64,000 bases of DNA from an uncultured bacterium (GTDB lineage: Bacteria; Oederibacteriota; Muellerivitia; Muellerivitales; Muellerivitaceae), in the NCBI GenBank assembly GCA_964624625.1, contig CAZUXW010000004.1, positions 28,931-92,930 on the forward strand. Direction: 5' to 3'. The notes beneath the pieces were generated by a model. It saw only the letters and a list, made by a program, of their open reading frames with translations. It was not told where the DNA came from and ran no database searches. Position numbers and translations under genes: made by a program. This document shows positions 2,726-42,196 of the stretch, piece by piece (the stretch's first letter is position 1; every line of letters begins with the position of its first letter).

Positions 2726-5700
2726 ATGAAGCCATTGAAGGGCCGCCGCTCCAATTTTCCATCCCTCCGTCGATGGCTTTTATCGGCCTCGCTCCTTCTT
2801 TCTATTCCGTCCCTCTCCTGGGGCCTGGAGTTTGGGATGAACAAGGTCCGGTACCACACGGACCATCAATGGAAAATCCTGGAGACGGAGCATTTCGAGA
2901 TTTATTACTACCAGGAATGCGAGACCCTCGCCCAGGCCGCGACCGGCTACGCGGAAAAGGCCTTCCTGAAGATCAGCAAAAGCTACGACTTCGTCCCCAA
3001 GAATAAAATCCCCCTGTTTATTTACGGCACTTCCACCGAGTTCCAGGAAACCAACATCACTCCCCAGGCCCTGCCCGAGGGAGTGGGGGGATTCACCGAG
3101 GTTTTCAAGAACCGCATCGTGGTTCCCATGGGCGGATCCTACCATGAGTTCGAGAAGGTCATCACCCATGAATTGACCCATGCCTTCCAGTACGACATGA
3201 TTTACGGCGAGGGTTGGCGCTCGGTGAACCTCTTCAAGGCGGTCTTCGTCCCCAATTGGATGATGGAGGGCATGGCTGAGTGGACGGCCCAGCATTGGGA
3301 ATCCCAGGGAGAGATGGTCCTGCGGGACGCGGTCCTGAACGACCAGGTCATCCCCCTGAATATGCTGGAATCCTTCGACCATTTCGAGCAGGTTTACATG
3401 GCTTACAAGGAATCCCAAAGCATCTTGGAATACGCCTCCCAGCTTTACGGCCCCGAGAAGGTCTACCAGATGATGAAAAAAATGGCCTCCAACCAGCAGG
3501 CCGACACGGTCCTGAAGTCCGTCCTGGGGGTTTCCCTGAACGAGCTTTTCGAGAACTGGCATTTTTACATCAAGTCCAGCGCCTGGGCGAGGATCCAAGG
3601 GATGCCTCCTCCGGACAAATACGGGGATTCCTTGGAGATGGGGGTCGCCAAGGCCGCGGCCTCGCCCGATGGGAAATGGGCGGCCTACCTGAAGGGAAGG
3701 GACCTGGTCCTTTGGGAAGTTTCCACCAAGAAAAAGACAACCCTCCTCCGGGAAAATTTCCAAACCCAGGGATCGGGAATCGCCTGGTCCCCGGACGGTA
3801 AAGAACTCGCCTTCGCCTCCAACCGGGATGGCGACTATATCCTCAAAACCATCGACCTGGGCAGCCGCAAGACGAGGGAACTCAAGGTTCCCCTTATGCC
3901 CTTGATCTATTCGCCGTCCTGGTCCCAGGACCAAAAGTTCCTGCTTTTTTCCGGTTTTGACTACCGCACCGTGGATTTGTACCGCTTGGAACTGGCCACC
4001 GGGAAGATCGACCGGCTCACCGACAACCAGGAAAGCGAATCCTGGGCCTGTTATTCGCCGGACGGCGCCAGCCTTTTTTACCTCGAGGAGGGCGGCGGGG
4101 AAACCAGGCTCAAGCGGGTGGATTTGGATTCCCGGGGCTTGCCCTTAAAGACGCCTATTTTAGTGGGAGGCGACCTGGGAACCGTCTCCTCTTTTCGAAT
4201 CGCGAAGAACTCGATTTACCTGACGTCCAATAAGAACAAGAGGATTTTCAACCTCTACCGCATGGATTTGGATGGAAGCCATTTGACCCAGCTGACGAAT
4301 AGCTTCGTGGACATCCTCAGCGCAGCCCCCGGCCCCGGCGCGGAGGATTTTTATTGCTGTCTTTACCGGCGGGGCCAGGAATCCCTCTCCCTGTTTCGCG
4401 CTGAAAAGCTGGAACCAACCCCCCCGCCCTCCGATGCTTCCGGCTATTTGGCCAATCGTTTCGACAACGCGTCGAACTTGATTCCCTCGGCCGCCGCTCC
4501 CCCTAAGGACGCGGAGAACCAGGACAACGCCGAAAAAACGGAGCAGGATTCGGCGAAGGACAAAAAAGAACCGGCGGCGCCGCCCATGGCCGTTTCCCGC
4601 TTGGAAGTCGTGGAAGCGTCCAATTTGGTCCAGCTCCAGTGGCCCGTGACCGCCGTGGAACAGGAAGCCGTAACCAGCTACCATGTTTTCCGATCCAAGA
4701 CCGCGGACGGGGATTTCGACCTGGTCGGAACCGTCTCCCCGGTTCGGCAGGGACGCTTCACGGATTATGACGTCCAAACGGGCGAGAATTATTTTTACTA
4801 TGTCACGGCCGTCAACAAGGCGGGCGAAAGCCCCCCCTCGCCCCCGCTGGAAGTCCAGCCCAATTTTAAGATCGTGTCCAGGGATTACCACCTGAAGATA
4901 TCCCCGGACATTCTTCTTTTCCTGGCCGGCTATGACAGTTCCTTCGGCTTCGTGGGGGGAGGTGTCCTCCAAATGAGCGATTACCTGGGCGACCACAGGC
5001 TGGCCATCCTGGGGGACACCATTCCCAGCGTCCGTACGGGCGTCGAGGCCAATTACCAGTTTTCCGCCTGGCGGACGACCGTGGACCTCAACTTTTTTTA
5101 TTTCCAGAATTTTTTCAGGATCTTCGACGTCCAAACGGGGAGCCTGGTGGATGAGTACCGCAACAACGAGAATGGGCTGGACGTGAATTTCACCTATCCC
5201 CTGGACCAGACCACGAGGTTCGAGTACGGGTTGGGGACCCAGCGTTTCCAGGGAAGCCCCCTGTTCCTGCGTTTCTCCGAGGGTATCTCCAATTATTTCC
5301 AAAACACGGACCAGTGGAACGTGGCCAACTATTACCGCGTCTCCCTGGTCCAGGACAAGCGGCGGGCCACCCAGTTTTGGCCGAGCAGCGGATACGCGGC
5401 GAATTTCACCCTGCTGCACGCGGTCCCGGTCCTGGACGCCAATGTTTCCTTCGCGAACCTTTTGTTGGAGACCCAGTTTTACGCCGATATCGGGTTTTTG
5501 AACCACTTGATCTGGGCGAACCGTATCGTCGCCATGACTTCCCAGGGCCCCAATCCCCAGTCCTTTTTTATCGGGGATGACGCGCCCTTCCAGGCTTTTT
5601 TCACGACCATCCGGGGCTACGGGGCAGGGACCTTTTTTGGGTCCAATTTAGGCCTCTGGAACATGGAGTTCCGTTATCCGATCGCCACCAACATGAATTT

Positions 5701-6044: not shown

Positions 6045-6743
6045 TTGGTAGGGCAGGGGGTACCAGTTATAATGGACCCTCTTAAAAAGGCCGCACTTCA
6101 AACGAGGAGTAGGTTCTTGAAAAAACTTTATTTTACAACCCTTTTCGGCCTTTTACTCACTGGTTCGATCCTCCTGGCCAAGCCCGCCGAGGAATTTAAC
6201 ATGGCTCAATACGAAATCATGGATCTGGATTTTCTCCGCACCCATTACAACGAGATCAATAACTGGCGCCAAATTCAAATTGACGGCACCTTTAGCTCCC
6301 TTAAATGGATGCCGCCCTACCAGTATAAGGAGCGCTTGAGCGCCATTGGGTTTGACGTCAACCAATATCATGTTCTTCAATTTGGCTTGAAGGAAAGTGA
6401 TGATTTTCATTATGGCTTTCCCCTTTTGCTTTTTAAAACCCAGGCGGGGGATTTGACGGAATTAGACCAGCTGGAAAAAGGGGAAAGGGTCACCCTCTAC
6501 GGCAGGTTCTTTAACCTGGCGAAATCCGAGTACGCCATGGAAGTGGACGTTTTGGAGACGGTAAAAAAAGGCGGCCATGACCGAAGGATATTGGTCGACG
6601 CCAGAGTTGCCCCGACCTTCACCCCCACCGCGACCATCACCAATACGCCAGGCCCCAACCTCTGGCAAAAGGTCTATTACAAGATCAATCCCAAGGAAAC
6701 GGCCACGCCGACCGGCACCATTACCCCTGAAGCCGGCAAGTAA
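6045..6743 (+). CDS. Hypothetical secreted protein with a Thr/Pro-rich C-terminal tail
   Basis: ORF with a hydrophobic signal-like segment (LFGLLLTGSILLA). I recognise no family. The true start may be the internal M at about 6072. Confidence 0.4.
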   Translation: MVGQGVPVIMDPLKKAALQTRSRFLKKLYFTTLFGLLLTGSILLAKPAEEFNMAQYEIMDLDFLRTHYNEINNWRQIQIDGTFSSLKWMPPYQYKERLSAIGFDVNQYHVLQFGLKESDDFHYGFPLLLFKTQAGDLTELDQLEKGERVTLYGRFFNLAKSEYAMEVDVLETVKKGGHDRRILVDARVAPTFTPTATITNTPGPNLWQKVYYKINPKETATPTGTITPEAGK

Positions 6744-6767: not shown

Positions 6768-7724
6768 TTGAAAAAAACCGTCCTCATCACCAATAACCTT
6801 CCCGCGGCCGCCTATCAGAAACTTTCGCGGAAATTTCACGTCACCTGGAACCAAAAACAGCTGACGGAAAATCAATTGGCGTCCAAAGCCAAAAATGTCC
6901 ATGCCCTATTAACCACCCTGGCCGATCCGGTTACCCGGAAAGTCCTATCCGCCGCGCCCAGGCTCCAATGCGTCGCCAACTACGCGGTGGGATATAACAA
7001 TATTGACCTTCAAGCGGCGAAGGAAAAGGGAATTTGGGTCACCAACACACCCAATGTCCTGACCGAGGCCACGGCGGATATCGCCTGGGCCCTGATATTG
7101 GCCTGCGCCAGGAGGATTCCTGAGGGAGAAAGACTGGTTCGTTCGGGAAAATTCAAGGGATGGCATCCCCTGATGTTATTGGGGGTCGATTTGACCGGTA
7201 AAACCTTGGGACTTTATGGGTTGGGAAGGATTGGACAGGCGGTAGCGATGAGGGGAAGGGGATGGGGCATGAAAGTGCTCTACCATCAACGGCACCGTGA
7301 ATCCCGTCTGGTAGAGAAGTCATTAAACGCTAAGTTTGTCCCTTTTGAGGCCCTTTTAAAAAAATCCGACATTCTCAGTGTCAACTCACCCTTAACTCCT
7401 GAAACCAAGGGCCGTTTCACCTTGAAAGAGTTTAAGCGAATGAAGCCTAGGTCCATATTCATCAATACCGCCAGAGGCTTGATTCATGATGAAAAGGACT
7501 TGGCGGAGGCCTTAAAAAGGGGCCTTATTTTTTCCGCCGGATTGGATGTTTATCAGTTCGAACCGCTGGTCGACCCAGGACTCCGAAGGCTGAATAACTG
7601 CGTGCTGCTGCCGCACTTGGGCAGCGGCACGGTTGAAACCAGGAACCGTATGGCCCTTTTGGCCGCCGAAAACATAGAATCGGTTCTCCTGGGCCGAAAA
7701 CCTAAAACTCCCGTCCGAATTTAA
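6768..7724 (+). CDS. D-isomer-specific 2-hydroxyacid dehydrogenase (glyoxylate/hydroxypyruvate reductase-like), NAD(P)-binding
   Basis: TTG start. NAD-binding GLYGLGRIGQAVA motif and a catalytic region (…SVNSPLTPETKGRF…NTARGLIHDE…LDVYQFEP…) typical of the family. Confidence 0.8.
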   Translation: MKKTVLITNNLPAAAYQKLSRKFHVTWNQKQLTENQLASKAKNVHALLTTLADPVTRKVLSAAPRLQCVANYAVGYNNIDLQAAKEKGIWVTNTPNVLTEATADIAWALILACARRIPEGERLVRSGKFKGWHPLMLLGVDLTGKTLGLYGLGRIGQAVAMRGRGWGMKVLYHQRHRESRLVEKSLNAKFVPFEALLKKSDILSVNSPLTPETKGRFTLKEFKRMKPRSIFINTARGLIHDEKDLAEALKRGLIFSAGLDVYQFEPLVDPGLRRLNNCVLLPHLGSGTVETRNRMALLAAENIESVLLGRKPKTPVRI

Positions 7725-8584: not shown

Positions 8585-8737
8585 AAGCGAAAATGGACTG
8601 AGGGTTCTGGTCGAGCTGGTCCTGAGATCGTTTAAAAAAACACTGATTGCGCGCAAAAACGGCCTTTAAAGCCTGTGAATTCTGAACCAGGCATTGAATC
8701 CAGTTGGGGCCCCGCGCCGGGCCTTGAGTCATTTTGG

Positions 8738-8766
8738 TTGACAATTGGGTTCGTAACTTCTATAAC
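8738..8766 (+). promoter_or_regulatory. Sigma-70-type promoter (TTGACA-17 bp-TATAAC) driving the recombinase gene
   Basis: Exact -35 hexamer, a 17-bp spacer and a 5/6 match at -10, placed 30 bp upstream of the AGGAGG RBS. Confidence 0.45.
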
Positions 8767-8786
8767 TACAATTATAGAAGTTACGA
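8751..8786. promoter_or_regulatory. Perfect 15-bp inverted repeat with a 6-bp spacer (TCGTAACTTCTATAA-ctacaa-TTATAGAAGTTACGA): candidate tyrosine-recombinase core site or autoregulatory operator
   Basis: Read directly from the sequence. It overlaps the promoter spacer and -10 and abuts the recombinase RBS. Confidence 0.5.
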
Positions 8787-8796
8787 AGGAGGAGTT

Positions 8797-9882
8797 ATGG
8801 CCGACGATAATCCATCCCAAGCCTTTAACCGCCCTGACGACCTTCAATTGCTGGAGCCCTATTCGGGTTTCTTGGCCCTTCGAAAATCCCCCCACACTAA
8901 ATCAAATTATCACCAGGATCTGAGGGTGCTTAAACAGTTCCTGGATGAATCCCGGTTGACTCCGGCTACGGCCAAACCCCAGGATTTGGCCAGGTTCGTG
9001 GGATTATTAACCAAACCAGGCCAAACGCCGGCCGGCAAGGCCCGCGGTTCCTATTCCACCAGGTCCATGAAACGAATATTGGCCTCGACCAGGTCCTTCT
9101 ACCGCTACCTGGCCTCCATCCAGCAAATCACCAACGACCCCACAGCCGTGTTTCATAACCTCGCGATTCGCAGCCCCCAGCGGAATCCCCGTCCCTTGCC
9201 GCCCCAAGCCAGGGCTGCCATGGTACAGGGCCTTCAGAAAGGCGATTTAGAGGCCTTAAAAGTAAGCCTGGTGGTCCTATTGGGCTACCATTGCGGTCTA
9301 AGGGTCTCGGAAATGGCGCACCTGAGGCTCCTGGATATAGACCTGAACCAGAAGGCGTTAACGGTCATTGGGAAAGGCGACAAGGAGCGGACCGTTCCCA
9401 TGACCGACGCTTTGAGGGACCTTCTCAAGCGGTATTTGGAGGAATGCGGTTCGGAGAAGGCTGGAGCCTCAGGGCCTTACTTATTTCCAAGCCCCCGCAG
9501 TGCGCAAAAGCCGATTCATCCTCATTTTTTGGAGACCTGGGTTAAGAAAGCCGCCCTATGGGCGGGTTTGGAAAACCCGGAGGATCTCACGGTTCATGTT
9601 TTAAGGCACACCTTTGGCACTCAATTGGCTGAATCAGGAGCCAGTGTTTATGAAATCCGCGATTTGATGGGCCATTCGAGCATCATGGTCAGTGAAAGTT
9701 ACGTGAAGCTAGCTTCCACGAAGGCCAAGCAGGCCCATGGGCGGGCTTTTGGAGGCGGCAACAAGGTCCATGCCTTAAGCTTGGAAGGCTCAGGGGGCCC
9801 TCGGGAGGTTTTACGGCGCTATCGGGCCAGGGGACGAAAAGCTTTACGGGACCCCTGGCCCGAGGATCCTGAAGCTGATTAA
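8797..9882 (+). CDS. Tyrosine-type site-specific recombinase/integrase (XerC/D-phage integrase family)
   Basis: C-terminal catalytic signature HVLRHTFGT…GHSSIMVSESY (R-H-R-Y family). ATG at 8797 is preceded by AGGAGG; the longer ORF from 8734 is rejected. Confidence 0.8.
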   Translation: MADDNPSQAFNRPDDLQLLEPYSGFLALRKSPHTKSNYHQDLRVLKQFLDESRLTPATAKPQDLARFVGLLTKPGQTPAGKARGSYSTRSMKRILASTRSFYRYLASIQQITNDPTAVFHNLAIRSPQRNPRPLPPQARAAMVQGLQKGDLEALKVSLVVLLGYHCGLRVSEMAHLRLLDIDLNQKALTVIGKGDKERTVPMTDALRDLLKRYLEECGSEKAGASGPYLFPSPRSAQKPIHPHFLETWVKKAALWAGLENPEDLTVHVLRHTFGTQLAESGASVYEIRDLMGHSSIMVSESYVKLASTKAKQAHGRAFGGGNKVHALSLEGSGGPREVLRRYRARGRKALRDPWPEDPEAD

Positions 9883-10340
9883 TCATTAAAAATGCATTCG
9901 AGAACGCACCTAAGTCTTTGTTTATCACATCTAATTACGACCTTTCTCGAGCCGCCGAAGGTCGATAAGGGATAGGTAAATTCAAAAGTTGCCAAAATGG
10001 GTCGTTTTTGCATTTAAACGATGTTTTTTTGAACGATTAATATCCATTGGCAATCTTTGTACTAGGGTCAAAAAAGCCCAAAAACGAATTGGTTGGGTGC
10101 CAAAACAACCTTTTGGAGGAGCGGCCAAATCCAACCCCGGATCCACCAGAAGGGCTTGTTTTTGGAATGGTCCTTTAAAATCAAGGATTTGGGGCCCCTT
10201 TGTTGGGACGTTCGTTTGAAAAAGCCGATTTTGATGGGTTTTTTGGAAATAGAGCGGTCTTCAAGCTTTGGTTTGATTTCAAGAACCTTGAAATAAAGGG
10301 TCTTGGCCTGGTCTTAAAGTTTTACTTTAAGGGGAATTAT

Positions 10341-11498
10341 ATGGAATTTTCGAACCGAACCCCAAGAGACTTATCCTTCAATCCCATCTCGAGTGCCCAA
10401 GATCGCCTGGAAGGTACCTCCCTTCTGGACTTAACCCAGTCCAATCCAACTCAATGCGGGTTTAACTACCCCTCGAATCTCCTGGAAACCCTTGGCAAGT
10501 CCCGGGGATTGTTTTACGAACCGGAACCTTTCGGTCATTCCAACGCCAGGCAGGCGGTCGCCGATTATTTAAGCCGTCACGGACCTCCCCTTGACCCCTC
10601 CAACGTCATCCTGACCGCCAGCACGAGCGAAGCCTATTCCTTTATTTTTAAACTCCTTGGCAACCCCGGCGACAGATTCCTGGTCCCGGCTCCCGGCTAT
10701 CCCCTGTTAGACCATCTCCTGTGCCTAGAGGGTCTGGAATCCATTCCCTATTTTTTAAAAAAAGAACCAGGTTGGCCGCTGGACCGGGATCCTTTTGAAA
10801 AGGCCCTCCGGCAAGGCACCAAAGGCCTCATCACGGTGAATCCCCACAATCCCACAGGCTGCTTTTTAAGTTTGGCCGACCAATCCTTTTTAACGGACCA
10901 ATGCCGTCAAAACTCCATGGCTTTCCTTTCGGACGAGGTTTTTTCCGATTTCGCTTTTCCAGGTCAGGGATCCGGTGAAAAGCCAACTCCTGATATCTTG
11001 TCCTTCCGGTTGGGAGGGCTCTCGAAAAGCCTGGGCCTTCCCCAGTTGAAGCTTTCCTGGATCGTCATGGAGGGTCCCGCTGGGGTTTTGGCGGAATGCC
11101 GGGCCAGGATGGAGTTGATCGCGGATACCTACCTATCGGTCAATACCCCGGTCCAATTGGCTTTGGGGGATTTGTTAAAGTTCGCGCCGATATTCCGGGA
11201 ACAGGTCTTAAGCCGGGTCTTGGAAAACTTGGCTTGTTTGGAAAGGACTTTGGCGGACTTGCCGGACGTCAAGGTTTGGCCGGTGCAGGGCGGATGGTAC
11301 GCTTTGGTGGAGGTTTTAAAGCCGGGCGTTTCAGAGGAACAGAGGGTCATTGACCTCTTGGAAAAGCAAGGGGTGTGGGTCCATCCCGGGGGGTTTTATG
11401 ACTTTCCCCAGGGAAATTTCTTGGTTTTGAGCCTGCTGCCGGCGGTTCGGGTTTTTGAGGAAGCGGCTGGCAGGATCAAAAAAAGCTTTAGGGTCTAG
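10341..11498 (+). CDS. Class I/II PLP-dependent aminotransferase (AlaA/MalY-like)
   Basis: The translation has aminotransferase fold features (…ILTASTSEAYSFIF…GDRFLVPAPGYP…) and a Lys-containing SKSLG segment. ATG at 10341 follows AAGGGG. Confidence 0.7.
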   Translation: MEFSNRTPRDLSFNPISSAQDRLEGTSLLDLTQSNPTQCGFNYPSNLLETLGKSRGLFYEPEPFGHSNARQAVADYLSRHGPPLDPSNVILTASTSEAYSFIFKLLGNPGDRFLVPAPGYPLLDHLLCLEGLESIPYFLKKEPGWPLDRDPFEKALRQGTKGLITVNPHNPTGCFLSLADQSFLTDQCRQNSMAFLSDEVFSDFAFPGQGSGEKPTPDILSFRLGGLSKSLGLPQLKLSWIVMEGPAGVLAECRARMELIADTYLSVNTPVQLALGDLLKFAPIFREQVLSRVLENLACLERTLADLPDVKVWPVQGGWYALVEVLKPGVSEEQRVIDLLEKQGVWVHPGGFYDFPQGNFLVLSLLPAVRVFEEAAGRIKKSFRV

Positions 11499-11531
11499 GC
11501 CGTTGGTTGGTGCGGTCCGGGGGGATTAAAT

Positions 11532-12197
11532 TCAAGCCTTGAGATTGCCCAGACGCCTGGACGCTTCCTTGCTCCAATTGGTATCTGGGTAGGACTGAAT
11601 GGTTATTTTCAATTGTTCCAGTGCCTTTTCCTTGTTTTGATTGTTGAGGTAAATGGACGAGAGGGTCAGGCGGATTTCAGGGGCGATAAAGCTATCCGAA
11701 TGGTCCTTCAAAAAAGTTTCGGCTAAAGTCGCGGCCGGGGCCCATTGGCTTTGCGCTTCCAAACACATGATCTTCCCCAAATAAGCCTCGTCGCCCAAGG
11801 GTGTTCCCTTGAGGTCCTGGTCCGCGGCGTCAAAACTGGTGTAGGCCTGGGTGAGTTGCCCTAAGGTCAGTTGGGTTTTGGCGACGTAATAACGGGCCAC
11901 TTTCGAGGTTTTGGTTCCGGAATAATCCGTGAGGATGCGTTGGAAGGTTTGAAGGGCCTGTTGATCCCTTTCCGCCCCCGATTTGAAGGGTCCGTTTTTG
12001 GGGTCCACCTGGGAGTGAAGGTAATATTGGCCGAGATTCAGGACGCCTCTGGCGTCATTTTCGCTCTTCGTTTGGCTGTGGAGGTAATAAGGAACCCCCA
12101 AGGCCAGGACCAGAAAAAGAATGCTGGCCACCGCCACGACCTCCTGATGGGCCTTGGCCCAATCCAGCCATTTTTGGGCCGCAGGTTTTTCCCCCAT
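11532..12197 (-). CDS. Membrane-anchored TPR-like protein (YfgM-like)
   Basis: A single N-terminal TM (VVAVASILFLVLALGVPYYL) followed by TPR-like helical repeats. Confidence 0.5.
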   Translation of the reverse strand: MGEKPAAQKWLDWAKAHQEVVAVASILFLVLALGVPYYLHSQTKSENDARGVLNLGQYYLHSQVDPKNGPFKSGAERDQQALQTFQRILTDYSGTKTSKVARYYVAKTQLTLGQLTQAYTSFDAADQDLKGTPLGDEAYLGKIMCLEAQSQWAPAATLAETFLKDHSDSFIAPEIRLTLSSIYLNNQNKEKALEQLKITIQSYPDTNWSKEASRRLGNLKA

Positions 12198-12292
12198 GAT
12201 CCTGTTGTGTCCCCAGTTGATCGTCATAAAAACCTCTTTGAGTGATCTAAAATTTGAAAGCGAAGCCTTCCGGTTGGGAAGGCCTCATTCGA

Positions 12293-12369
12293 TGGTACCC
12301 TCGACGCGAATCGAACGCGTGACCTACCCTTTAGGAAAGGGTCGCTCTATCCAACTGAGCTACGAGGGC
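12293..12369 (-). tRNA. tRNA-Arg (anticodon CCT)
   Basis: A cloverleaf built by hand from the reverse complement: acceptor GCCCTCG/CGAGGGT, D arm GCTC-AGTTGGATA-GAGC, anticodon loop TTCCTAA, T arm ACGCG-TTCGATT-CGCGT and a CCA end. Confidence 0.85.
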
Positions 12370-12499
12370 GTTCAAGCGCGGTGCCCCACTTTAAGCGCGA
12401 AGCGCTGAATTATGACTGTTTTAAATGGTTACCGCAATTCAAAAAGTCCCTTTGTTCCAATTAAAGGCGACCCCGGGACCAAGCCGGGGAAAGGCGCGG

Positions 12500-13012
12500 T
12501 TAGTATTGGATTATAGAGTAGACGGGGGTGCTTTTCAATTTTTCATGGCCCTTTAGGAATGTCAATTGAATGATAAAACAAGCCTCCACGACTTCACCGC
12601 CGGCCCGCTCGACCAGGCGGATCGTGGCGGCCGCTGTTCCCCCTGTGGCCAATACGTCATCGAGGACCAATATCCTGTCCCCTTTTCCGATGGCGTCCAG
12701 GTGTATTTCCAGGGTGTCCTTGCCGTATTCCAGCTCGTAAGTCTCCTGCAAGGTTTTCCAGGGAAGTTTTCCCGGTTTCCGGACTGGAATAAAGGAAACC
12801 CCCATCGTGGCGGCTAAGGCTCCGCCAAAAATAAAGCCCCGCGATTCCATGGCCACGATCGAGGTGATGCGGCTGTTTTTGTAATGGTCGGCCAATTGCC
12901 GGATAACTTCCTGAAACGCCTTGGGGTCCTTCAACAGGGGGGTGATATCCTTGAAGATGATCCCCTTTTTCGGAAAATTTGGTACATCACGGATCAGGCT
13001 TTTGAAATCCAT
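12500..13012 (-). CDS. apt: Adenine phosphoribosyltransferase
   Basis: PRPP-binding motif VLDDVLATGGT and overall APRT-like sequence. Confidence 0.85.
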   Translation of the reverse strand: MDFKSLIRDVPNFPKKGIIFKDITPLLKDPKAFQEVIRQLADHYKNSRITSIVAMESRGFIFGGALAATMGVSFIPVRKPGKLPWKTLQETYELEYGKDTLEIHLDAIGKGDRILVLDDVLATGGTAAATIRLVERAGGEVVEACFIIQLTFLKGHEKLKSTPVYSIIQY

Positions 13013-13086
13013 GGTCCATCCTTTATGAGTTTTATGGGTTGGCGGAAGTTTCGGGGGAAAACGAAACGGCTTTGCCGGGAAGAATC

Positions 13087-14058
13087 TTACACAAACTCGT
13101 TTAAAAGTTCACGGTATTCTTCGCCGCTGGATTTCATGAGGGACCTGATTTTTTGGAGGGCTTTTTCCTCGATTTGGCGGATTCTCTCCCGGGTGACACC
13201 TAAAAGGGTGCCGGTTTGTTCGAGGGTTTTGGGCTGGTCCTGGTCAAAGCCGAAGCGCATCAGGATCACCTTTTGTTCCTTGTCGTTGAGGTTTTCAATG
13301 AGCTTTTTCAACTTTTCGGTGCGGAGCTGGTCAAAAACGTTTTGAGCCGGGCTTAAAACGGTTTTGTCCTCGATGAAATCACCGATGGTCTTTGAGCCGG
13401 ACTCGTCCCCCACCGTCAATTCCAGGGATAGGTCCCTTTGAGCCAGCCGTTGGAGCTTGTGGATTTTTTCGAACTTGAGACGGGAGGCTTTGGAGATTTC
13501 CATGAGGCTTGGTTCGCGGCCCAGCTTGCGGGTCAGGTCCCTGGTGATCCTTTGGACCCGGTTGATATCCTCGGAAACATGGACCGGCACCCGGACGGTC
13601 CGGGATTGGTTGGAAAGGGCCCTCGTGATGGATTGGCGGATCCACCAAGTCGCGTAGGTGCTGAATTTAAACCCGCGCCGCCAGGAGAATTTCTCGCTGG
13701 CCTTGATGAGTCCCAGGTTGCCTTCCTCGATGAGATCCTGGAAAGCCAAACCTTGATTGACGTATTTTTTCGCGACATTCACGACCAGACGGAGATTGGC
13801 GGAGATGAGCCATTGCTTGGCCTTCATATCGCCCTTTTCGATCCTCTGGGCCAGTGAAACTTCCTCGGGGCCGGTCAAGAGCTTGACCCTGGAAATTTCG
13901 CGGAAGTAGAGCTTAAGGCTGTCGGTGGTGACTCTTTCACTGGTTTTAAATTGGTTGGATTGGAATAATTTCTTGTCAAGGATGGGAATCAGCGGGGCTA
14001 TGGCCATTTTCTTGGGCTTGGTTTTCAGCTTAAGTTTCAGGTTCGCTTTTTTGGCCAT
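13087..14058 (-). CDS. RNA polymerase sigma-70 family factor (RpoD/group 1-2-like)
   Basis: Region 2 (FSTYATWWIRQSITRA) and region 4 HTH (LGVTRERIRQIEEKALQKIR). The start is taken at MAKKANLK to avoid overlap with acyP. Confidence 0.8.
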   Translation of the reverse strand: MAKKANLKLKLKTKPKKMAIAPLIPILDKKLFQSNQFKTSERVTTDSLKLYFREISRVKLLTGPEEVSLAQRIEKGDMKAKQWLISANLRLVVNVAKKYVNQGLAFQDLIEEGNLGLIKASEKFSWRRGFKFSTYATWWIRQSITRALSNQSRTVRVPVHVSEDINRVQRITRDLTRKLGREPSLMEISKASRLKFEKIHKLQRLAQRDLSLELTVGDESGSKTIGDFIEDKTVLSPAQNVFDQLRTEKLKKLIENLNDKEQKVILMRFGFDQDQPKTLEQTGTLLGVTRERIRQIEEKALQKIRSLMKSSGEEYRELLNEFV

Positions 14059-14341: not shown

Positions 14342-14445
14342 GGGAAACCTTCCTTGGGGATAGGCTTAAAATTGTCAGTTTTTTGAATAAATTGAGCTTA
14401 TTTTTGACTTTTTAAAAATCTGTGGTAACAACCCTAAATTCGGGA

Positions 14446-14485
14446 AAAACAAAAAGGCCAAGGCGTTCCCCATCCGCGGATTGGG
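14446..14485 (-). terminator. Possible terminator downstream of the tRNA-Pro pair
   Basis: A near-palindrome CCCATCCGCGGATTGGG followed (on the minus strand) by the T-rich tract TTTTTGTTTTT. Confidence 0.25.
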
Positions 14486-14509
14486 ACTGCCTTAGCCTCT
14501 TGAAAAAAA

Positions 14510-14586
14510 TGGTCGGGGCGGCAGGATTTGAACCTGCAACCTTTTGCACCCCATGCAACTGCGCTACCGGGTTGCGCCACGCCCCG
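14510..14586 (-). tRNA. tRNA-Pro (anticodon GGG)
   Basis: Reverse complement folds as acceptor CGGGGCG/CGCCCCG, D arm GCGC…GCGC, anticodon loop ATGGGGT, T arm GCAGG-TTCAAAT-CCTGC and a CCA end. Confidence 0.8.
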
Positions 14587-14625
14587 AAAAACCGACCATG
14601 AACCGAGATGTTGAAAGGGTGACTT

Positions 14626-14701
14626 TGGTCGGGGTGAGAGGATTCGAACCTCCGGCCCCTTGGTCCCGAACCAAGTGCGCTAGCCGCTGCGCTACACCCC
14701 G
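14626..14701 (-). tRNA. tRNA-Pro (anticodon CGG)
   Basis: Reverse complement folds as acceptor CGGGGTG/CACCCCG, anticodon stem CTTGG/CCAAG with loop TTCGGGA, T loop TTCGAAT and a CCA end. Confidence 0.85.
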
Positions 14702-14844
14702 TCCAAAGTAACCTTGCGGGACATCGTGAAGGCTTGGATCCTAAACTGAATCGATAAGGAACCCAACATCCCCCGAAGGGATGCATACTATAGGCCAAAA
14801 AATATCGGCATTCAAGAAAAGAAGATCGGGGAAAGACGGTTTTT

Positions 14845-24685: not shown

Positions 24686-26575
24686 CTAAAAAATAACTTC
24701 AATTCCCCCGCGGATGTGAAACCTCGGCTCCAAGTATCCAGGCTGGATTTGGTAATTCTCTCCCAGCAAATTATCCCCATTCAGCCATAGGGAGAAAGTC
24801 TTGCTCAAATGGTAAGTGGCGTCAAGCCCCAGGGTCCAGTAGGCGGGTAAGGACCCAGGCAGGCTGTCGAACGCCTGCCGGTCCGACATGGCCTGCAATT
24901 CCAACCTTGTTTCCAACTGGTCGTCCCCGCGATAAATGGAAAGGATGCCCCGGTGCGCGGCTAATCCCGTAACGTTCAAACCATCCCCGGAGCGGTTCAT
25001 GCCCTGGGTCCATTGATAGGTCGCGGCAGCCTGCCAATCCTTCATGAAGTTCCATTGAACATTGGCCCCGGCCTTGGTGATTTCAACCTCGCCGAGGGTG
25101 GAATAGGCCTGGATTTGGACCGGCGCCGAGGGAGATATGTCGGTCCATTGGTGGTCGTTTTGAATCCTGGCGACGGAGGCGGAAAGCGAGGTGATGATTT
25201 TTTCCGATATTTTTTGGGTGAACCGGCCTCCCCACTCGCCGGTCACCTCCGTGGCCAGGGGAAAACCCGTTTCCGGGGCCACATGCTCGTTGTTCATGTA
25301 GGTGTTATGAAAACTATCGACGTAACGGTCCGTGCGCCAATACAGATTGAGCTGGCTTTGGCCGAAAAACCGCCACATGAGGTCCAGAACGGGGAAAAAT
25401 TTGAGGGGAAGGTCCAATCCGCTTCCGCCCTGTCCTTGGAGTTTGGCCGTTAAGGACAAGTTTTCCCCGTGTTTTAAAAAGGCCTGGAGGCCGAACCATG
25501 CCCAGTCATAACTGGTGACGGCGGGCGAGGCGAAATCCGAGGTCGCCCTCCTGCCGCCGGCCTCTAATCCGACGCGGTTCAGGAAAGGATCCAGGTCCTC
25601 GGCGGTTACCTTAAATTGGCCTTCCAACTCGCCGGTTTGGTTGGTTTTGGCGCTTCCGTCCCAGTAGGACAAGGTCGTCGGCTGGTTTGAGATTTTCACT
25701 TGGGCCTGGACCAGGTTTGAGATTTTCCAATGGAGGTCCGCGCTTTGTTCCGAACCCTGATGGGTTTCCCGAATCGAGCCTTGGTAAGGCAGCTCATCCT
25801 CGATTTGGGAGATATTCCCGGCCAAGCGGAGGCTGAAGGGTGTCGAGGAGAATAATTTGACGTCCAATCCGAAATTATAGCGCTTGTCCCCGTCCCGTCC
25901 GGCTCCCGCCGCCTCGCCGCCCCAAGTCGAGTAAAAACCGTTCAACAGGTACTGAAGATCCTTGAATTCCTGGCCGAACAGCCCCCAGCCGCCGTAGCTG
26001 TCGGGAGTTCCTCCGCCCGCGTGCAGGATAAAGGCCGTGTCCTTCGAGGGGCCCGCTTCCTCCGCGGTCAAGGCGGTAAAGGTTTTATTGAGGCCGGGAA
26101 GATCGTTGATGGCTCTTTCCACCCCGGTCAGATCGTGGCTTCCCAAGGTTACGTCATTCTCTTTTCGATCCAGCCTCTTGGCGCCGATGGTCAATTCGTT
26201 TTCCCCCGTGATGACGACTTCAGGCAGGGAAAATTCCGGAACCGCGGTGGGCCGGCTTTGAACGGGGGCCTTTTCACCCTCGCCTTGGGATGGTTTTTGG
26301 TTGGCGCCAGGGGCCTGACCGGATGGTTCTCCCGGGATTGCCGCCGCGTCGGGCTTGGAGATATCGGATTTATCCGTCGCGGGGGTGGCGGAAGAGGTCA
26401 AGTCGCTGTCGGGAAGGATCGTCTCTTCGGCCTGGACGGAGGCGGCCATCAAACCTAAAACGCCGAAAAATAAAAATAGCCGATAGAGGCCGATTTGTCC
26501 GGCGGAGTTTTTGCGGAGCCGGAGGGAGGCCGGTGGGAAACCTTTTGGGCGGGGGATTTTTATGGGACTTTTCAC
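24686..26575 (-). CDS. Outer-membrane beta-barrel protein, TonB-dependent-receptor-like
   Basis: A signal peptide, a low-complexity Pro/Ser/Gln linker, a plug/TonB-box-like PEVVITGE, aromatic-rich beta-strand periodicity and a C-terminal …GGIEVIF. At 629 aa it is short for a canonical TBDR. Confidence 0.5.
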   Translation of the reverse strand: MKSPIKIPRPKGFPPASLRLRKNSAGQIGLYRLFLFFGVLGLMAASVQAEETILPDSDLTSSATPATDKSDISKPDAAAIPGEPSGQAPGANQKPSQGEGEKAPVQSRPTAVPEFSLPEVVITGENELTIGAKRLDRKENDVTLGSHDLTGVERAINDLPGLNKTFTALTAEEAGPSKDTAFILHAGGGTPDSYGGWGLFGQEFKDLQYLLNGFYSTWGGEAAGAGRDGDKRYNFGLDVKLFSSTPFSLRLAGNISQIEDELPYQGSIRETHQGSEQSADLHWKISNLVQAQVKISNQPTTLSYWDGSAKTNQTGELEGQFKVTAEDLDPFLNRVGLEAGGRRATSDFASPAVTSYDWAWFGLQAFLKHGENLSLTAKLQGQGGSGLDLPLKFFPVLDLMWRFFGQSQLNLYWRTDRYVDSFHNTYMNNEHVAPETGFPLATEVTGEWGGRFTQKISEKIITSLSASVARIQNDHQWTDISPSAPVQIQAYSTLGEVEITKAGANVQWNFMKDWQAAATYQWTQGMNRSGDGLNVTGLAAHRGILSIYRGDDQLETRLELQAMSDRQAFDSLPGSLPAYWTLGLDATYHLSKTFSLWLNGDNLLGENYQIQPGYLEPRFHIRGGIEVIF

Positions 26576-34383: not shown

Positions 34384-37300
34384 TCATTTTAACCGCGAAT
34401 TTACTTCGGTCCAAAAAGTTGGACGAAGAAAACTTTTCAACATTTGAACCGAGTCTTCCAGCCTCAATTCACTCCGGATCAACAGCCCTTTCCCGACCTT
34501 TTGAAGGATCACCGCTGACCGGCCGGGATTCTTCGAAAGGGCAACAAGGGACGCCCATTGGGAACCCTTGGCGGTTAACCCATGATCGACCTTTCCCGCG
34601 GCCAATCCTGGGACAAAGCCGAAGAGTTCCGCCAGGGCCGGCCCTTCCCGGCGCCCGCCCTCCTTGGAGGGAACCGCCTCATCCCTCGTGTCGTCCACTT
34701 CCCAACCCCCTTGCGTCAAATGGATCAACCACTCGGGAAGAATCTCCCGGTTTGAATAGGCCGGTCCCAAGAAAAGTATCCCGCCCCTTTCCAGGAATTT
34801 TTTGAAGGCCTTTCCCAGCTCCTGGTCGGCCCAGTAAGAGGCGGGTTTAAAATGATGGCGGCCCGAGGAAAAGGCGCCGGTGCCTAAAACCGCCAGTTTG
34901 GTCCGTAAGGCTCCCTTGTCATCCAACAGTGCGGAAGCGATGTCCCCGGTGGAAATCGGCAGGTCCATATCCAGGAAACTGACCGAAGAGGTGACCCGCC
35001 TCATGGTCTTGAGCTCGCTGCCGCCCACCGATGGGAAGTTGGCTGGTTCGGTATTTTTGTGTTTTAGGAAAATCCCCGAGGGCGTGGTGAGGAGCAGGAG
35101 GCTGGAGGGTTCCACCAGGTAAGGTTCCGGTTGAAAAGGTTGGGGCGGCGGCGGGTTCCGTTCCCCGCTCGGAAGTTGGGACCCTTCGGAAACGGTGATG
35201 GTTTGGTCCTGGCCCTCCGCCAAAGTAAAACGGCACCTGGCTTCCCTGCCGTTGGTTTCAGCCAACGTTTTTTGCCATTCCACTGAACCCAAAGTGGTGA
35301 GGTTGGATAAAAGGTGTAGGCTTGCCCAAATATCAACCAGGACTTCAGGGGAGGGACCCTTGTCCAGATGAAAGTTGACGGACCATTCTTTCGCCCCGGT
35401 TCTTTTCAGGGAAAATGAGACTTGGGATTTTCCGACGAGAAGCCTCTGGGCCGAGAATATTTTCAAATCCTCCGGCAGGTGGGGCGAAAACACAACCCGG
35501 TTGTTTCCGGCGTCCGGGGAGAAGCCCGTGATAAATTCCAAAAGCGACTCCGTATTTAAACCGCCTTCCCAGGGCCTCACCCTCCCGCTGGTACCAAGTC
35601 CCCAAGCAGGCGTATTCCAGGGGTGACATTGACCGTCGTACATCTCGGCGAATTCGCCCGAAGGCGTGGCGGTTTTGAGAACCGCGCGGTAGGCCTTTTC
35701 GGCCCAGGGCAGCCGGGCTTTCGAAAACGAGTAAAGCAATTGGCCGGGATTCATTCCCACGAAAAAATCAACCGTCGGCGTTGTTTTCCAAAAACCATCT
35801 TCCCTTCCGAGAATGGGATAAGCATTACGCAAGGCGGCAACCGCATGGCCCGAACTGGAAGGCGTTTCGCCTAAGGGGTCTAAGTCGTTCCTGGCGTAAC
35901 CGCACCAAAAGGGATTGATCAGGACATTGGCCTGGGGCGCGTTGACCAGGGGGCCCAACAGGGATTGGGCCGGCGCCCAATAGCCGGCTTTTTCGTTCCA
36001 ATAGGTGGCCTCGGCCTTGTCGCGGACCTTGCGGGCCAGGCTGGTCATTTCCGAAACATCCTTATCCATCTCAATATATTTTCCCAAGTAGGCCAAGCGG
36101 TCCGCGGCCGCGACGAGGTCGAAGCTGGAATCCGCCGCGAAGGCGTAAGTGGATAGGTCGTAATTGGGACAGGGGCATTGGTCAAAGCACCTGGATTCGA
36201 GGCACCAAAGATAGGTCTCGTCCCGGTGGAAAAAATACTTGTCCTCCACCCGGACCTGTCCCTCGACGCATCGTTTTAAATAGCCCCACCTGGCCCGGAT
36301 CAGGTCGATGTCGCCGGTCGTCAGGTAATACCACCAATGCTGCAGCACAATCCAATTGGGAGTCTCCGCGTGCTCCACTTGGATGTCCGAAAGGTCTTTT
36401 TTCCGGAAATTCAGGGGGAAATCCACCCGGACGCTGTTGGGAAGGGATCCCATGCTCGAGGCGATCCCGTAAAAAAAATCCATGGCTCCCTTCGCTTCCC
36501 GGGGATGGCCTGTTTTCAAAAACCAGCGGATGGGGCCGTTGTTGTCACGGATCCAAGTGTAGGAATAACCGATGAGCGGCGAGAAGCCTCCGGAGTGGGA
36601 TTGCTGGCTCTTAAAAATCATCGATTCAATCTCGAAAAGATCCGTGATTTTGGGATCCCCGGCGAATTCCGTTCCCTGCCGGAACCAATCGGTGAAATAA
36701 ACGCGGGTCTGATCCAAAAGGGAGAGGGCTCCTTTTTTGCGGAGGCCGGCGCTGTCCGCGGCGCTTTCCCGGGAAGTATCGGAGGAGAGAAGAAAGAAAG
36801 CGGCCCATGTTTCCCCGCCTGGCGGCAAGCTTGGAAAGCGGTAGCGGAGGTTGCCTTCGGATATGCTGGCGTTGCCCTGTTGGAAAGCCCCCAGCCTCCA
36901 TACCGTTCGCTTTTTCGCCTTCGCGGCTTTTTGAACCAACACCAAATCATGGCCGATGTTTTTCTTCGGGGCTGTCACGTTCCAGGCTGCTTGGATTTTC
37001 AACTCAAGATTCAGGTCGGATTCGGTTTTTGTTCCCGAGTTGGTGAGGTGGACCATCCGGATGATAACGGGCGTGTTGTTCCAAACGGCATCATCCTCGG
37101 AAGTCACTGGGGCGAAATCATAACTCTCGACGGACAAACCGCTCCCCTGGGCTTCCACCTTCACCAAGCCGGACCTTTTCACCCAGCCGATTTTTTGCCC
37201 GGGAAGCCAGACGGGGCTGCCGCCCCTGGTCAGGGCCATGTGGAGGGAGCCCAAGTCCGGCTCTTGATAGGAATCCCCGTAGATGTTCGACCAATTCCAA

Positions 37301-42102: not shown

Positions 42103-42196
42103 TTGACCACAGATGAACAGGGATTTACACAGAAGTAAAATTATTTTTATGTAAACCTTTTTCAATCGGTGTAAATCCATGTCCATCAATGGTTAA
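42103..42196. repeat. Copy Y of the structured intergenic repeat (TTGACCACAGATGAACAGGGATTTACAC…GTGTAAATCCATGTCCATCAATGGTTAA)
   Basis: Lies between aroA and cmk. It has the same 5' CCACAGATGA.CAGGGAT and 3' TGG.TAA ends as copies X and Z, plus an internal GATTTACAC/GTGTAAATC inverted repeat. Confidence 0.55.

Follow-up and report, generated by a model that had tools for sequence, protein, structure and literature searches.

What purpose is served by a perfect inverted repeat that lies within the promoter of a tyrosine recombinase gene? The arrangement was found in a 64-kb stretch of DNA that was analyzed as a whole (the window), from an uncultured bacterium of the phylum FCPU426. The initial annotation had offered several readings of the repeat: the recombination site of the enzyme itself, a remnant att site of a degraded mobile element, an autorepression operator, or part of a site-specific inversion or resolution system.

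Recombinase gene and protein

The gene (8797–9882, plus strand) begins with an ATG at 8797, has a stop codon ending at 9882, and encodes an Xer-like tyrosine recombinase of 361 aa, the 362 aa given initially being the number of codons with the stop included. The protein has the two-domain fold and the R-K-H-R-H/W-Y residues of the tyrosine recombinase superfamily, with matches to Phage_integrase (PF00589, 3e-32) and a SAM-like N-terminal domain (PF02899, 2e-11). The catalytic residues R169, K193, H267, R270, H293 and Y302 align with those of XerD and are invariant in 32 sequences, and by its sequence the enzyme looks active. An AlphaFold model (pLDDT 87) returned Xer proteins as the top fold matches, and the predicted fold is nearest to XerA, XerD and XerH. 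Scores against the curated models lie below their cutoffs in all cases: 166.3 bits for XerC (TIGR02224, cutoff 335.15), 152.7 bits for XerD (TIGR02225, cutoff 329.6), 132.6 bits for XerA (NF040815, cutoff 220) and, across the catalytic domain only, 85.8 bits for XerS (NF003462, cutoff 267). A basic C-terminal helix (residues 333–351) is carried by the chromosomal clade. The xer gene is single-copy in all sequence searched, and the window holds no other ORF for a tyrosine recombinase.

Promoter and inverted repeat

Upstream of the gene, on the plus strand, are a -35 hexamer, TTGACA (8738–8743), and a -10 hexamer, TATAAC (8761–8766), separated by 17 nt. They are accompanied by a perfect palindrome (8750–8787) that consists of TTCGTAACTTCTATAA (8750–8765), ctacaa (8766–8771) and TTATAGAAGTTACGAA (8772–8787). 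A promoter overlapping a perfect inverted repeat, as read initially from the sequence, is thus borne out, with some changes of detail. Each arm is one base longer than the 15 bp first given (16+6+16), and the repeat does not follow the -10 hexamer but contains it, the hexamer being made up of five bases at the inner end of the left arm and the first base of the central region. The Shine-Dalgarno sequence AGGAGG (8787–8792, plus strand), 4 nt ahead of the ATG, abuts the right arm and shares the last base of its extended form; the 10 bp said to separate the two is what lies between the 15-bp arm and the ATG. A terminator scan identified a GC-rich hairpin followed by a T-run (8704–8727, plus strand) past the upstream alpha/beta-hydrolase gene and just ahead of the -35 hexamer, which suggests that xer forms its own transcription unit.

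Apart from this palindrome, the window has no perfect inverted repeat that combines arms of 10 bp or more with a spacer of 3–10 bp, and arms of 16 bp were not reached in any of 100 first-order Markov simulations (largest, 14). Its 16-mer has no other occurrence in the window when up to three mismatches are allowed, the chance expectation being 0.16 matches. The xer promoter, matching at 11 of 12 positions, is the best in the window. Matches to a sigma-70-like promoter at 10 or more of 12 positions are enriched in intergenic DNA (four in 6.3 kb, versus three in the other 58 kb) and are correctly oriented there, and sigma-70-type promoters appear from these sequences to be used by this organism. 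The last base of the -10 hexamer in the window is C, where T is highly conserved; a stricter scanning rule demands T at this position and therefore did not call TATAAC. Of 29 species, 18 have TATAAT and seven have TATAAC as the hexamer, and a -35 TTG lies 16–18 bp upstream of the TATAAY of the left arm in 21 of the 29.

A dif-like core site and its co-variation with the recombinase

Comparison of 30 FCPU426 species shows that the functional unit is shorter than the palindrome seen here, and has the 11+6+11 geometry of dif sites. Arm positions 1–11 are complementary in 26–30 of the 30 species, while from position 12 outward complementarity is at chance level (15, 12, 11 and 8 species at positions 12, 13, 14 and 15). 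The outer five pairs of the extended palindrome are not conserved in other species, and a palindrome of such length is found in this lineage only. In the window, the 28-bp core site (8755–8782) comprises a left arm, AACTTCTATAA (8755–8765), the central region CTACAA (8766–8771) and a right arm, TTATAGAAGTT (8772–8782). The inner arms, TATAA/TTATA, are near-invariant and include the conserved ATAA/TTAT of dif sites. The outer positions 6–10 vary between species with both arms changing together: two to four types of complementary pair occur at each position, and complementarity is kept in 26–30 species where 9–16 would be expected if the arms evolved independently. The symmetry of the arms argues for a single binding specificity, and the asymmetric central region within an exact 11+6+11 layout looks like the geometry of a crossover site.

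The changes in the arms are matched by changes in the protein. The motif H241-P242-H243, followed by F244, appears to set arm specificity: species with CTTC arms and those with TCGG arms are separated by just two alignment columns (243 and 244). Residue 243 is H with CTTC arms, D with TCGG arms, R with TTCA arms, and H or N with TTAG arms, while F or Y occupies position 244. The species with CTTC arms do not form a tight clade, their mean identity being 0.63 within the group versus 0.61 to the other group. Residues 243–244 align with T-R-Q-T-F of XerD, the position of the 'RQX' dif-binding specificity motif (PMC2958812).

Each of the 29 loci for which upstream sequence was available has the site ahead of xer, at 15–80 bp from where the protein match begins. 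Searches of the window and of 28 loci, each about 13 kb long, gave no second copy. A metagenome scan with the 22 specified bases of the site gave 11 matches, of which five adjoin xer in FCPU426 genomes. The remaining six have unrelated spacers; five of them are in low-GC DNA, and the contig with the sixth (47% GC) has none of the genes of the locus. All FCPU426-type matches in the scan adjoin xer. The only match in the window to a canonical XerCD-type dif (42137–42157) has two mismatches, which is at chance level, and lacks a symmetric left arm. It had been proposed initially that the absence of a second site would favor a simple operator. That test is unsound: a dif site on a chromosome should have no second copy there, as it recombines with its counterpart on the sister chromosome.

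Genomic context

The locus is chromosomal: its neighbors are housekeeping genes, and the contigs that carry it reach 1.4 Mb. Across the phylum (about 30 species) the genes keep the order abhydrolase, xer, aminotransferase, TPR, and in 33 of 33 assemblies the orientation of xer with respect to the adjacent hydrolase gene is unchanged. Gene orientations converge at 11498–11532: to the left are 15 plus-strand genes over 20.7 kb, and to the right 37 of 42 ORFs, over 52 kb, are on the minus strand. Across loci the convergence point falls 0.1–2.7 kb downstream of xer, most of these loci being syntenic and hence not independent as to position. On one 918-kb contig, the block from miaA to hyp232 has moved across xer and been inverted, with the result that it points at xer as before. 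The switch in orientation could be local, the left side being known for about 20 kb only.

Going through the locus, GC skew turns from negative to positive, a polarity that is origin-like and contrary to what a terminus usually shows. Skew at third codon positions is negative (C over G) on the coding strand in genes of both orientations, and no consistent shift was seen between the left and right flanks of 21 loci. GC skew was rejected as a test for the terminus, as the signal tracks the gene strand; it carries no separable replication signal because third-position skew follows the coding strand. A replication origin in the AT-rich stretch downstream of xer was also rejected, given that the genes converge rather than diverge and that dnaA, dnaN and parAB are not nearby. 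The window holds no ftsK gene.

Integrated elements that exploit the core site were not found, either in scans of IMG/VR or in phage-like contigs. Two IMG/VR scans with the arm pattern for mimics of the site in integrated elements or phages gave only chance palindromes in AT-rich phages, and one better-looking match (in L059) is inside a 478-aa ORF. HNH-like ORFs located between the upstream flanking element (see below) and the promoter in two loci (L006 and L010) scored under the Pfam cutoffs.

Flanking inverted elements

The stretch downstream of the gene (9883–10341) is 40% GC, compared with 54.5% for the window. Initially seen as possible debris of a mobile element, it instead holds a conserved non-coding element of about 50 bp, with the consensus CCAAAATGGGyCGaTTTTGCATTTAAAnnnnGTTTwTTTGAAmGATTATT. 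The copy in the window, CCAAAATGGGTCGTTTTTGCATTTAAACGATGTTTTTTTGAACGATTAATAT (9992–10044, plus strand), is strong (nhmmer, E = 2e-13), and downstream copies are kept in about 24 species, 100–150 bp past the xer stop codon. An alignment of these copies shows a conserved extension, CAATCTTTGTACTA (10051–10064, plus strand), which occurs only with downstream copies. An inverted, upstream copy (8627–8664, minus strand) was detected by regular expression and nhmmer; it is degenerate, with the outer blocks ATCGTTTAAAAAAACA and GCAAAAACGGCC kept and the core TTTGCATTTAAA lost. Other species have a strong upstream copy at the same position on the minus strand, 120–270 bp ahead of xer. In most species, the inverted pair brackets the core site and gene, the copies being about 1.35 kb apart, while the elements are missing from four species.

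In the DNA searched, the element is near-exclusive to xer flanks, the one clear exception being a third copy (3703–3751) in locus L028. It shares no sequence with the core site and does not co-vary with the recombinase, remaining constant while the core arms and the recognition motif change, and the two copies within a genome are not homogenized. No Rfam family matched the locus at either gathering or E <= 1 thresholds, and RNAalifold gave no consensus RNA structure for the element on either strand. A promoter function was rejected, as the element fits neither sigma-54 spacing nor sigma-70; reading the downstream copy as a Bacteroidetes-type -33/-7 promoter is not supported either, the intergenic regions of the window containing no examples of that type.

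By analogy with the accessory sites at cer and psi, the flanking elements could act as a topological filter or form a loop around dif, or, like the TrmBL2 boundary beside archaeal dif, they could stall SMC condensin. They could also be polar fork traps, so that replication ends at dif. The C-terminal helix of the recombinase (residues 333–351) might serve as a bridge to them. It is a tentative and rather unlikely possibility that the gene, the site and flanking elements that bind a second conserved protein make up a compact terminus-organizing cassette.

Function of the site

The locus is probably an xer-dif module in which a single recombinase resolves chromosome dimers and the site also serves as an operator for autorepression. 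The repeat is supported as the enzyme's own recombination site because of its dif geometry, the symmetric co-variation of its arms and their co-variation with the DNA-recognition motif of the protein. The operator reading is supported as well, given that protein bound there would block the -10 hexamer and the transcription start. The two readings are probably both true, and the suggestion of a resolution system fits.

From these comparisons we infer binding, recombination, a role in dimer resolution, a location at the terminus and repression, as follows. Two monomers of the 361-aa enzyme would bind the two 11-bp arms of the 28-bp site. When sister chromosomes have been fused into a dimer by homologous recombination, the two copies of the site would synapse in a tetramer, Tyr302 would cleave at the edges of the 6-bp central region, and the dimer would be resolved by two sequential strand exchanges through a Holliday junction. 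The left arm would supply the -10 hexamer, placing the transcription start within the central region or right arm, and for this reason an occupied site would block RNA polymerase and hold recombinase synthesis near the level needed to fill the site.

It is unlikely that the palindrome is an autoregulatory operator only, with the true recombination substrate elsewhere or on a mobile partner. Such a role would agree with a site that covers the conserved promoter from the -10 to about +20 and that has no second copy in the window, the loci or the metagenome scan, and recombinase-fold proteins can repress (structures of phi3T SroF are among the distant fold matches). However, none of the six catalytic residues varies within the family, an enzyme that is active must have a substrate, and the core site is the sole conserved site that co-varies with the recognition motif; its geometry and asymmetric central region are those of a crossover site, and uniqueness is expected of dif. 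There is similarly little chance that the site is a real recombination site with another task, such as resolving multimers of a secondary replicon or unloading SMC condensin at the terminus. Xer proteins do have such extra roles (PMC11840125), as with XerD, which at XDS sites provides docking for the unloading of SMC condensin, and the location between converging genes would suit a terminus-organizing role. Against this, the context is one of chromosomal housekeeping genes on long contigs, recombination is indicated by a site with both arms complete and by intact catalytic residues, and a condensin role would add to dimer resolution rather than replace it.

The readings that involve mobile or invertible DNA are much less probable still. 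A decayed integrative element or prophage, of which the gene and site would be the integrase and att remnant, is suggested by the nearest outgroup proteins (42–47% identity), which are encoded on phage-like contigs of about 12 kb, by the AT-rich region downstream and by the conserved inverted elements flanking the gene. On those contigs no dif-like repeat was found beside the gene, and IMG/VR contains no close relatives of these paralogues. The identical gene order in about 30 species implies vertical inheritance, no direct repeat of the core site was found at a far end in the loci searched, there are no element genes and there is no variable location, and the downstream stretch holds a conserved element, all of which makes a remnant very improbable. 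Ancient domestication of an element integrase may have occurred; it would concern the origin of the gene and not its present function. An inversion switch, in which the recombinase flips a segment between inverted sites, is equally improbable. The inverted pair of roughly 50-bp elements that brackets the gene recalls hin between hixL and hixR, but these elements are unlike the core site, are constant between species, are not homogenized between copies and are missing from four species. Moreover, no second, inverted core site was found in the window or the 13-kb loci, and the constant orientation of xer in 33 assemblies leaves only one of the two orientations represented.

Comparison with known systems

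The xer-dif module proposed here shares features with several described systems. XerS/difSL of streptococci and lactococci also has one recombinase, of about 356 aa, with the site directly upstream of the gene, and constitutes a single genetic module at the terminus. Overlap with the promoter and autoregulation were proposed for xerS by its discoverers (PMC1914069). The difSL site differs in being 31 bp and asymmetric, with TTTCCGAAAA-type arms, whereas that of FCPU426 is a symmetric, 28-bp site of the canonical dif type with an unrelated sequence, and the protein scores only 86 bits against the XerS cutoff of 267. XerH/difH of Helicobacter and Campylobacter likewise has a single Xer (354–362 aa) and a site near the gene, at 16–66 bp in most species (PMC2731167), the same range of distances being reported for difSL and difH from xerS and xerH (PMC1914069, PMC2731167, PMC5357621). 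XerH has the highest TM-score (0.62) among the Foldseek matches listed, but sequence similarity to it is confined to the catalytic domain (E = 3e-7), and the arms of difH are asymmetric and of the TGAAAA type.

Archaeal XerA/dif combines a single recombinase with a near-palindromic 11+6+11 site that has inner (A)TATAA/TTATA(T) sequences, as in T. kodakarensis, where dif is TTTTGATATAA-TGTACC-TTATATGACAA (PMC11840125); the architecture of dif is described in PMC2958812. In some lineages, e.g., haloarchaea, dif is upstream of the xerA operon (PMC2958812, PMC5357621, PMC11840125). The present system is, however, bacterial, its protein has a beta-hairpin insertion and a C-terminal helix that XerA lacks, and it scores higher with the XerC and XerD models (166 and 153 bits) than with the XerA model (133 bits, cutoff 220). 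XerC and XerD (E. coli, B. subtilis) are the closest relatives by sequence (XerD 1a0p, E = 5e-31), with the recognition motif at the same position, and their dif has the same 11+6+11 layout and inner ATAA/TTAT. They differ in being two paralogous enzymes acting on asymmetric arms, with genes far from dif, and the present protein reaches only about half of the curated cutoffs for either model. Cre/loxP of phage P1 resembles the FCPU426 system in having one enzyme and a site that has perfectly symmetric arms around an asymmetric spacer and adjoins the regulatory region of the recombinase gene, but loxP, with a 13+8+13 layout, is part of a phage or plasmid, and the fold similarity to Cre is distant (14–15% identity). 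XerL/dif of Legionellales, likened here by description alone, is outlined in PMC9765430 as a recently recognized, lineage-specific, single-recombinase dif system, the site having been recognized, according to the same outline, through the attachment site of a mobile element near the replication terminus.

Implications

Chromosome dimer resolution is near-universal. The single-recombinase solutions that were found described in the literature are XerS, XerH, XerA and XerL, and the FCPU426 system would be a fifth; it is most likely a variant on known xer-dif systems, in a phylum without a cultured member. Its target is a perfectly symmetric canonical dif, whose arm sequences have changed on several occasions along with a single residue of the recognition motif. 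This amounts to a natural specificity code for Xer proteins, which is testable and could be used to re-target recombinases. With the site placed inside the promoter of the recombinase gene, the system offers a direct case for testing the autoregulation and anti-hitchhiker idea that was put forward in 2007 for xerS, and a literature search found no later report that takes up this idea. For FCPU426 assemblies, in which GC skew is uninformative, the 28-bp site would mark the likely replication terminus.

Inverted Repeat and Promoter of the Recombinase Gene

The gene for the Xer-like tyrosine recombinase (xer, ATG at 8797, end at 9882, plus strand; 361 aa) is preceded by a -35 hexamer, TTGACA (8738-8743, plus strand), that can be read directly in the sequence, and 17 nt after it by a -10 hexamer, TATAAC (8761-8766, plus strand). 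The -10 hexamer sits within the left arm of a perfect inverted repeat with 16 bp arms, TTCGTAACTTCTATAA (8750-8765) and TTATAGAAGTTACGAA (8772-8787), that surround the central region ctacaa, and an AGGAGG motif (8787-8792, plus strand) abuts the right arm. A terminator-like hairpin (8704-8727) lies between the upstream gene and the xer promoter. The initial annotation had described a promoter and a perfect repeat ahead of a tyrosine recombinase gene, and the sequence confirms this with small corrections: the overlap of -10 and repeat stands, whereas a -10 placed before the repeat does not, and the arms and the ORF are 16 bp and 361 aa long rather than 15 bp and 362 aa.

Among inverted repeats with arms of 10 bp or longer and a spacer of 3-10 bp, that at 8750-8787 is the sole perfect one in the whole window. 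Arms of 16 bp were reached in none of 100 Markov simulations, and no further copies of the arm sequence (up to 3 mismatches) occur elsewhere in the window; a chance origin is excluded. Sigma-70-like matches of at least 10/12 in the window cluster in intergenic DNA and have the correct orientation, with the xer promoter ranking best. Neither a second core site (the dif-like repeat of the xer promoter) nor a further tyrosine recombinase ORF was found in the window. An intergenic, canonical dif-like match at 42137-42157 (plus strand, AAAATTATTTTTATGTAAACC) is at chance level, being equalled in 34% of shuffles, and lacks a symmetric left arm; its right half resembles TTATGTAAAC, the arm to which XerD binds in B. 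subtilis dif.

Recombinase Protein and Its Relatives

The recombinase has a Phage_integrase domain and a SAM-like N-terminal domain (Pfam). Its top NCBIfam hits, XerC (166 bits), XerD (153), XerA (133) and XerS (86), are far under the curated cutoffs of all four models. The closest solved structures by sequence are XerD (1a0p, 5e-31) and archaeal XerA (4a8e), and the match to XerH is confined to the catalytic domain. Residues R169, K193, H267, R270, H293 and Y302 are invariant among 32 family members and align with the catalytic residues of XerD. In the AlphaFold model (pLDDT 87) the protein adopts the two-domain fold of Xer recombinases, and Foldseek ranked XerA, XerD, integron integrase and XerH at the top. 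Two additions are seen in this model: a beta-hairpin inserted into the N-terminal DNA-binding domain at residues 72-87, which is predicted with confidence and in which G75, T77 and G80 are invariant and P78, K81 and R83 nearly so, and an extra basic C-terminal helix (333-351) past the usual end of Xer proteins.

Orthologues with 54-83% identity, single per contig, were found in 33 species-level genomes, mostly labelled candidate division FCPU426. Outside this chromosomal clade, the recombinase comes closest (42-47% identity) to integrases of 316-343 aa whose genes lie on phage-like contigs of some 9-13 kb (L076, 2795-3745; L077, 552-1523; and the contig of relative P0110). These integrases do not keep the C-terminal motif KVHAL...VLKR (region 315-361) of the chromosomal clade. 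These contigs carry small genes, including those for SLT or GH25 lysins, a holin and a DNA methylase; on one, a viral coat-protein domain (P2_N) is weakly matched. The contigs resemble small phages without tails. Beside their integrase genes no dif-like repeat was found, and IMG/VR contains no close relative of the integrases. Either a host Xer was captured by phages or a phage integrase was domesticated.

Conservation of the Core Site and Predicted Arm Recognition

An inverted repeat lies directly before xer at every locus having upstream sequence. Of 30 distinct sites, 26-30 have complementary arms at each of positions 1-11, counted from the centre; at positions 12 to 15 the number drops to 15, 12, 11 and 8. 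Because complementarity is limited to positions 1-11, the functional unit is exactly 11+6+11 = 28 bp (8755-8782 in the window), and the 16 bp arms of the window are a lineage peculiarity. The inner bases, TATAA/TTATA, are almost invariant among the 30 sites, positions 6-10 vary by lineage (AACTTC, ATTCGG, ATTTCA, AATTAG, ATTTGG, AATGAG) and always change in both arms together, and the central region is asymmetric, with the pattern YTNNAR and TTACAG as its most frequent form. The architecture is that of dif, which has 11 bp arms, a 6 bp spacer, conserved inner ATAA/TTAT and variable outer specificity bases (PMC2958812). The inner arms also match those of archaeal dif, e.g., TTTTGATATAA-TGTACC-TTATATGACAA of T. 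kodakarensis (PMC11840125).

No second core site with up to 5 mismatches to the locus's own site was present in any 13 kb locus. A scan of 241 million metagenome records with the pattern AACTTCTATAA-N6-TTATAGAAGTT gave 11 matches, five of them from FCPU426, where the site immediately precedes xer. The other six have unrelated spacers; five are in low-GC DNA and one (47% GC) is on a contig, L066, without any of the locus genes.

When 24 orthologues were aligned and searched for columns separating species with CTTC outer arms from those with TCGG or TTGG arms, only two, the adjacent columns 243 and 244, did so. Residue 243 is H with CTTC arms, D with TCGG, R with TTCA, and H or N with TTAG; residue 244 is F or Y. 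Mean identity is 0.63 inside the CTTC group against 0.61 to the other group, so that the former is as diverse within as it is distant from the latter, and simple inheritance by clade therefore does not explain the separation. In the alignment, 243-244 correspond to T-F of T-R-Q-T-F in XerD, the 'RQX' motif, which sets arm specificity in XerC, XerD and XerA (PMC2958812). This co-variation is the strongest indirect evidence for the predicted binding of the core site by the recombinase.

Promoter Overlap and Possible Autoregulation

With the loci anchored on the site, 21 of 29 species show a -35 TTG at a distance of 16-18 bp ahead of TATAAY, with an A-tract beyond it; the -10 hexamer reads TATAAT in 18 species, TATAAC in seven. 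About a third of species have an in-frame ATG abutting the right arm, so that the leader would be very short. If a dimer of the recombinase occupied the core site, both the -10 element and the transcription start would be covered, and autorepression would thus be a natural consequence; we infer that xer may be repressed in this way. Le Bourgeois et al. proposed the same autorepression for difSL-xerS, an arrangement also proposed to penalise insertions at dif, as these would separate the gene from its promoter (PMC1914069).

A Second Conserved Element Flanking xer

In most FCPU426 species, xer is also enclosed by two inverted copies of a roughly 50 bp conserved element (core, TTTGCATTTAAA-N4-GTTTwTTTGAAmGATT), the same end of which always faces the gene. 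Downstream copies are on the plus strand, 100-150 bp past the xer stop codon, and upstream copies are on the minus strand, usually 120-270 bp ahead of the start codon, as exemplified by locus L015 (5766-5813, minus, and 7160-7215, plus). In the window, the downstream copy is strong (9992-10044, plus strand) and is extended by CAATCTTTGTACTA (10051-10064, plus strand), while the upstream copy (8627-8664, minus strand) is degenerate. An HMM search of the window and the comparison loci found the element almost exclusively at the xer flanks; the few matches elsewhere were weak (E = 6e-4 or worse), except that one locus, L028, has a third copy (3703-3751), and four species (L020, L025, L030 and L070) lack the element. 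It has no consensus RNA fold or Rfam match, does not resemble the core site and does not co-vary with the core arms. Archaeal dif adjoins a condensin boundary (PMC11840125), and one may speculate that the flanking element is a similar boundary, an accessory-protein site or a fork trap.

In some species, the stretch from the upstream element to the xer promoter contains an additional gene. Two lineages have homologous HNH-like ORFs there that are rich in cysteine and 122-124 aa long (L006, 3792-4166, and L010, 5552-5920, both plus strand; Pfam HNH matches under cutoff), and one has an NmrA-like gene (L011, 4966-5820, plus strand). The interval beside the core site appears to accept insertions.

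Synteny and Chromosomal Position

The window derives from a metagenome contig of 110 kb. The gene order peptidase-Omp85, hyp232, 2-hydroxyacid dehydrogenase, alpha/beta-hydrolase, xer and aminotransferase is kept across the phylum, followed on the other strand by TPR, PRT and sigma-70 in conserved order; this makes xer a chromosomal gene that is inherited vertically and is not mobile. Conserved ORFs of the window that lack a Pfam domain (6045-6743, plus strand; 24686-26575 and 34384-39320, minus strand) comprise hyp232, whose synteny with xer extends throughout the phylum, as well as proteins of 629, 1071 and 574 aa. Two adjacent tRNA genes (14513-14586 and 14629-14701, minus strand) are both overlapped by a probably spurious 128 aa ORF (14412-14798).

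On the source contig, 15 consecutive plus-strand genes, including xer, cover 20.7 kb on the left, and on the right, from 11.5 kb of the window on, 37 of 42 ORFs over 52 kb are on the minus strand; the two directions of transcription thus meet 2.7 kb downstream of the core site. Convergence 0.1-2.7 kb from xer is seen at other loci too, but given the shared synteny this is not independent evidence. The block miaA-NUDIX-S49-peptidase-hyp232 is usually left of xer on the plus strand; in L040 (918 kb contig CAWCKJ010000003.1, 11188-20597) it is on the right, on the minus strand, adjoining an IS/DDE transposase gene (12050-13480), and def-fmt-rsmB have replaced it as left neighbours, so that convergence on xer is kept. 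The same displaced, inverted miaA-hyp232 block occurs in L018 and L019. The rearrangement looks like the pattern expected of inversion between replication arms, with xer/terminus as pivot. GC skew goes from negative to positive across the locus. At third codon positions, the coding strand has more C than G in almost all genes of the window, on either strand, and the bulk skew therefore mirrors gene orientation only; the genome has almost no replication-linked skew separable from gene strand. With the skew uninformative, the convergence patterns only suggest that the core site is at the replication terminus.

Probable Function and Relation to Known Xer Systems

The central idea of the initial annotation, a recombinase gene with its own lox/dif-like site, was right. 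That the site is purely an operator, as its overlap with the -10 might be read, is unlikely: an active enzyme needs a substrate, and only the core site co-evolves with the recombinase. The remnant of an integrative element, the reading that the phage-borne relatives might bring to mind, is very improbable given the conserved synteny, and an inversion switch hardly more credible, since no second core site was found in the window or the 13 kb loci and the orientation is the same in all assemblies. The repeat could also be a real recombination site with another task, such as resolving secondary-replicon multimers or unloading condensin; this too we consider improbable, and condensin unloading would be an addition to dimer resolution, not a replacement.

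It has been suggested that physical linkage of site and gene may characterise Xer systems with a single recombinase (PMC5357621): the distance between difH and xerH is 16-66 bp in several species (PMC2731167), and in haloarchaea a dif-like site is found upstream of the xerA operon (PMC11840125). The FCPU426 recombinase is most like XerC/XerD in sequence, and its core site shares perfect symmetry with archaeal XerA sites and, unlike difSL and difH, is of the canonical dif type. The FCPU426 pair would work like the XerS, XerH and XerA systems while belonging to none of them, and its most likely function is to resolve chromosome dimers with one Xer that regulates itself.
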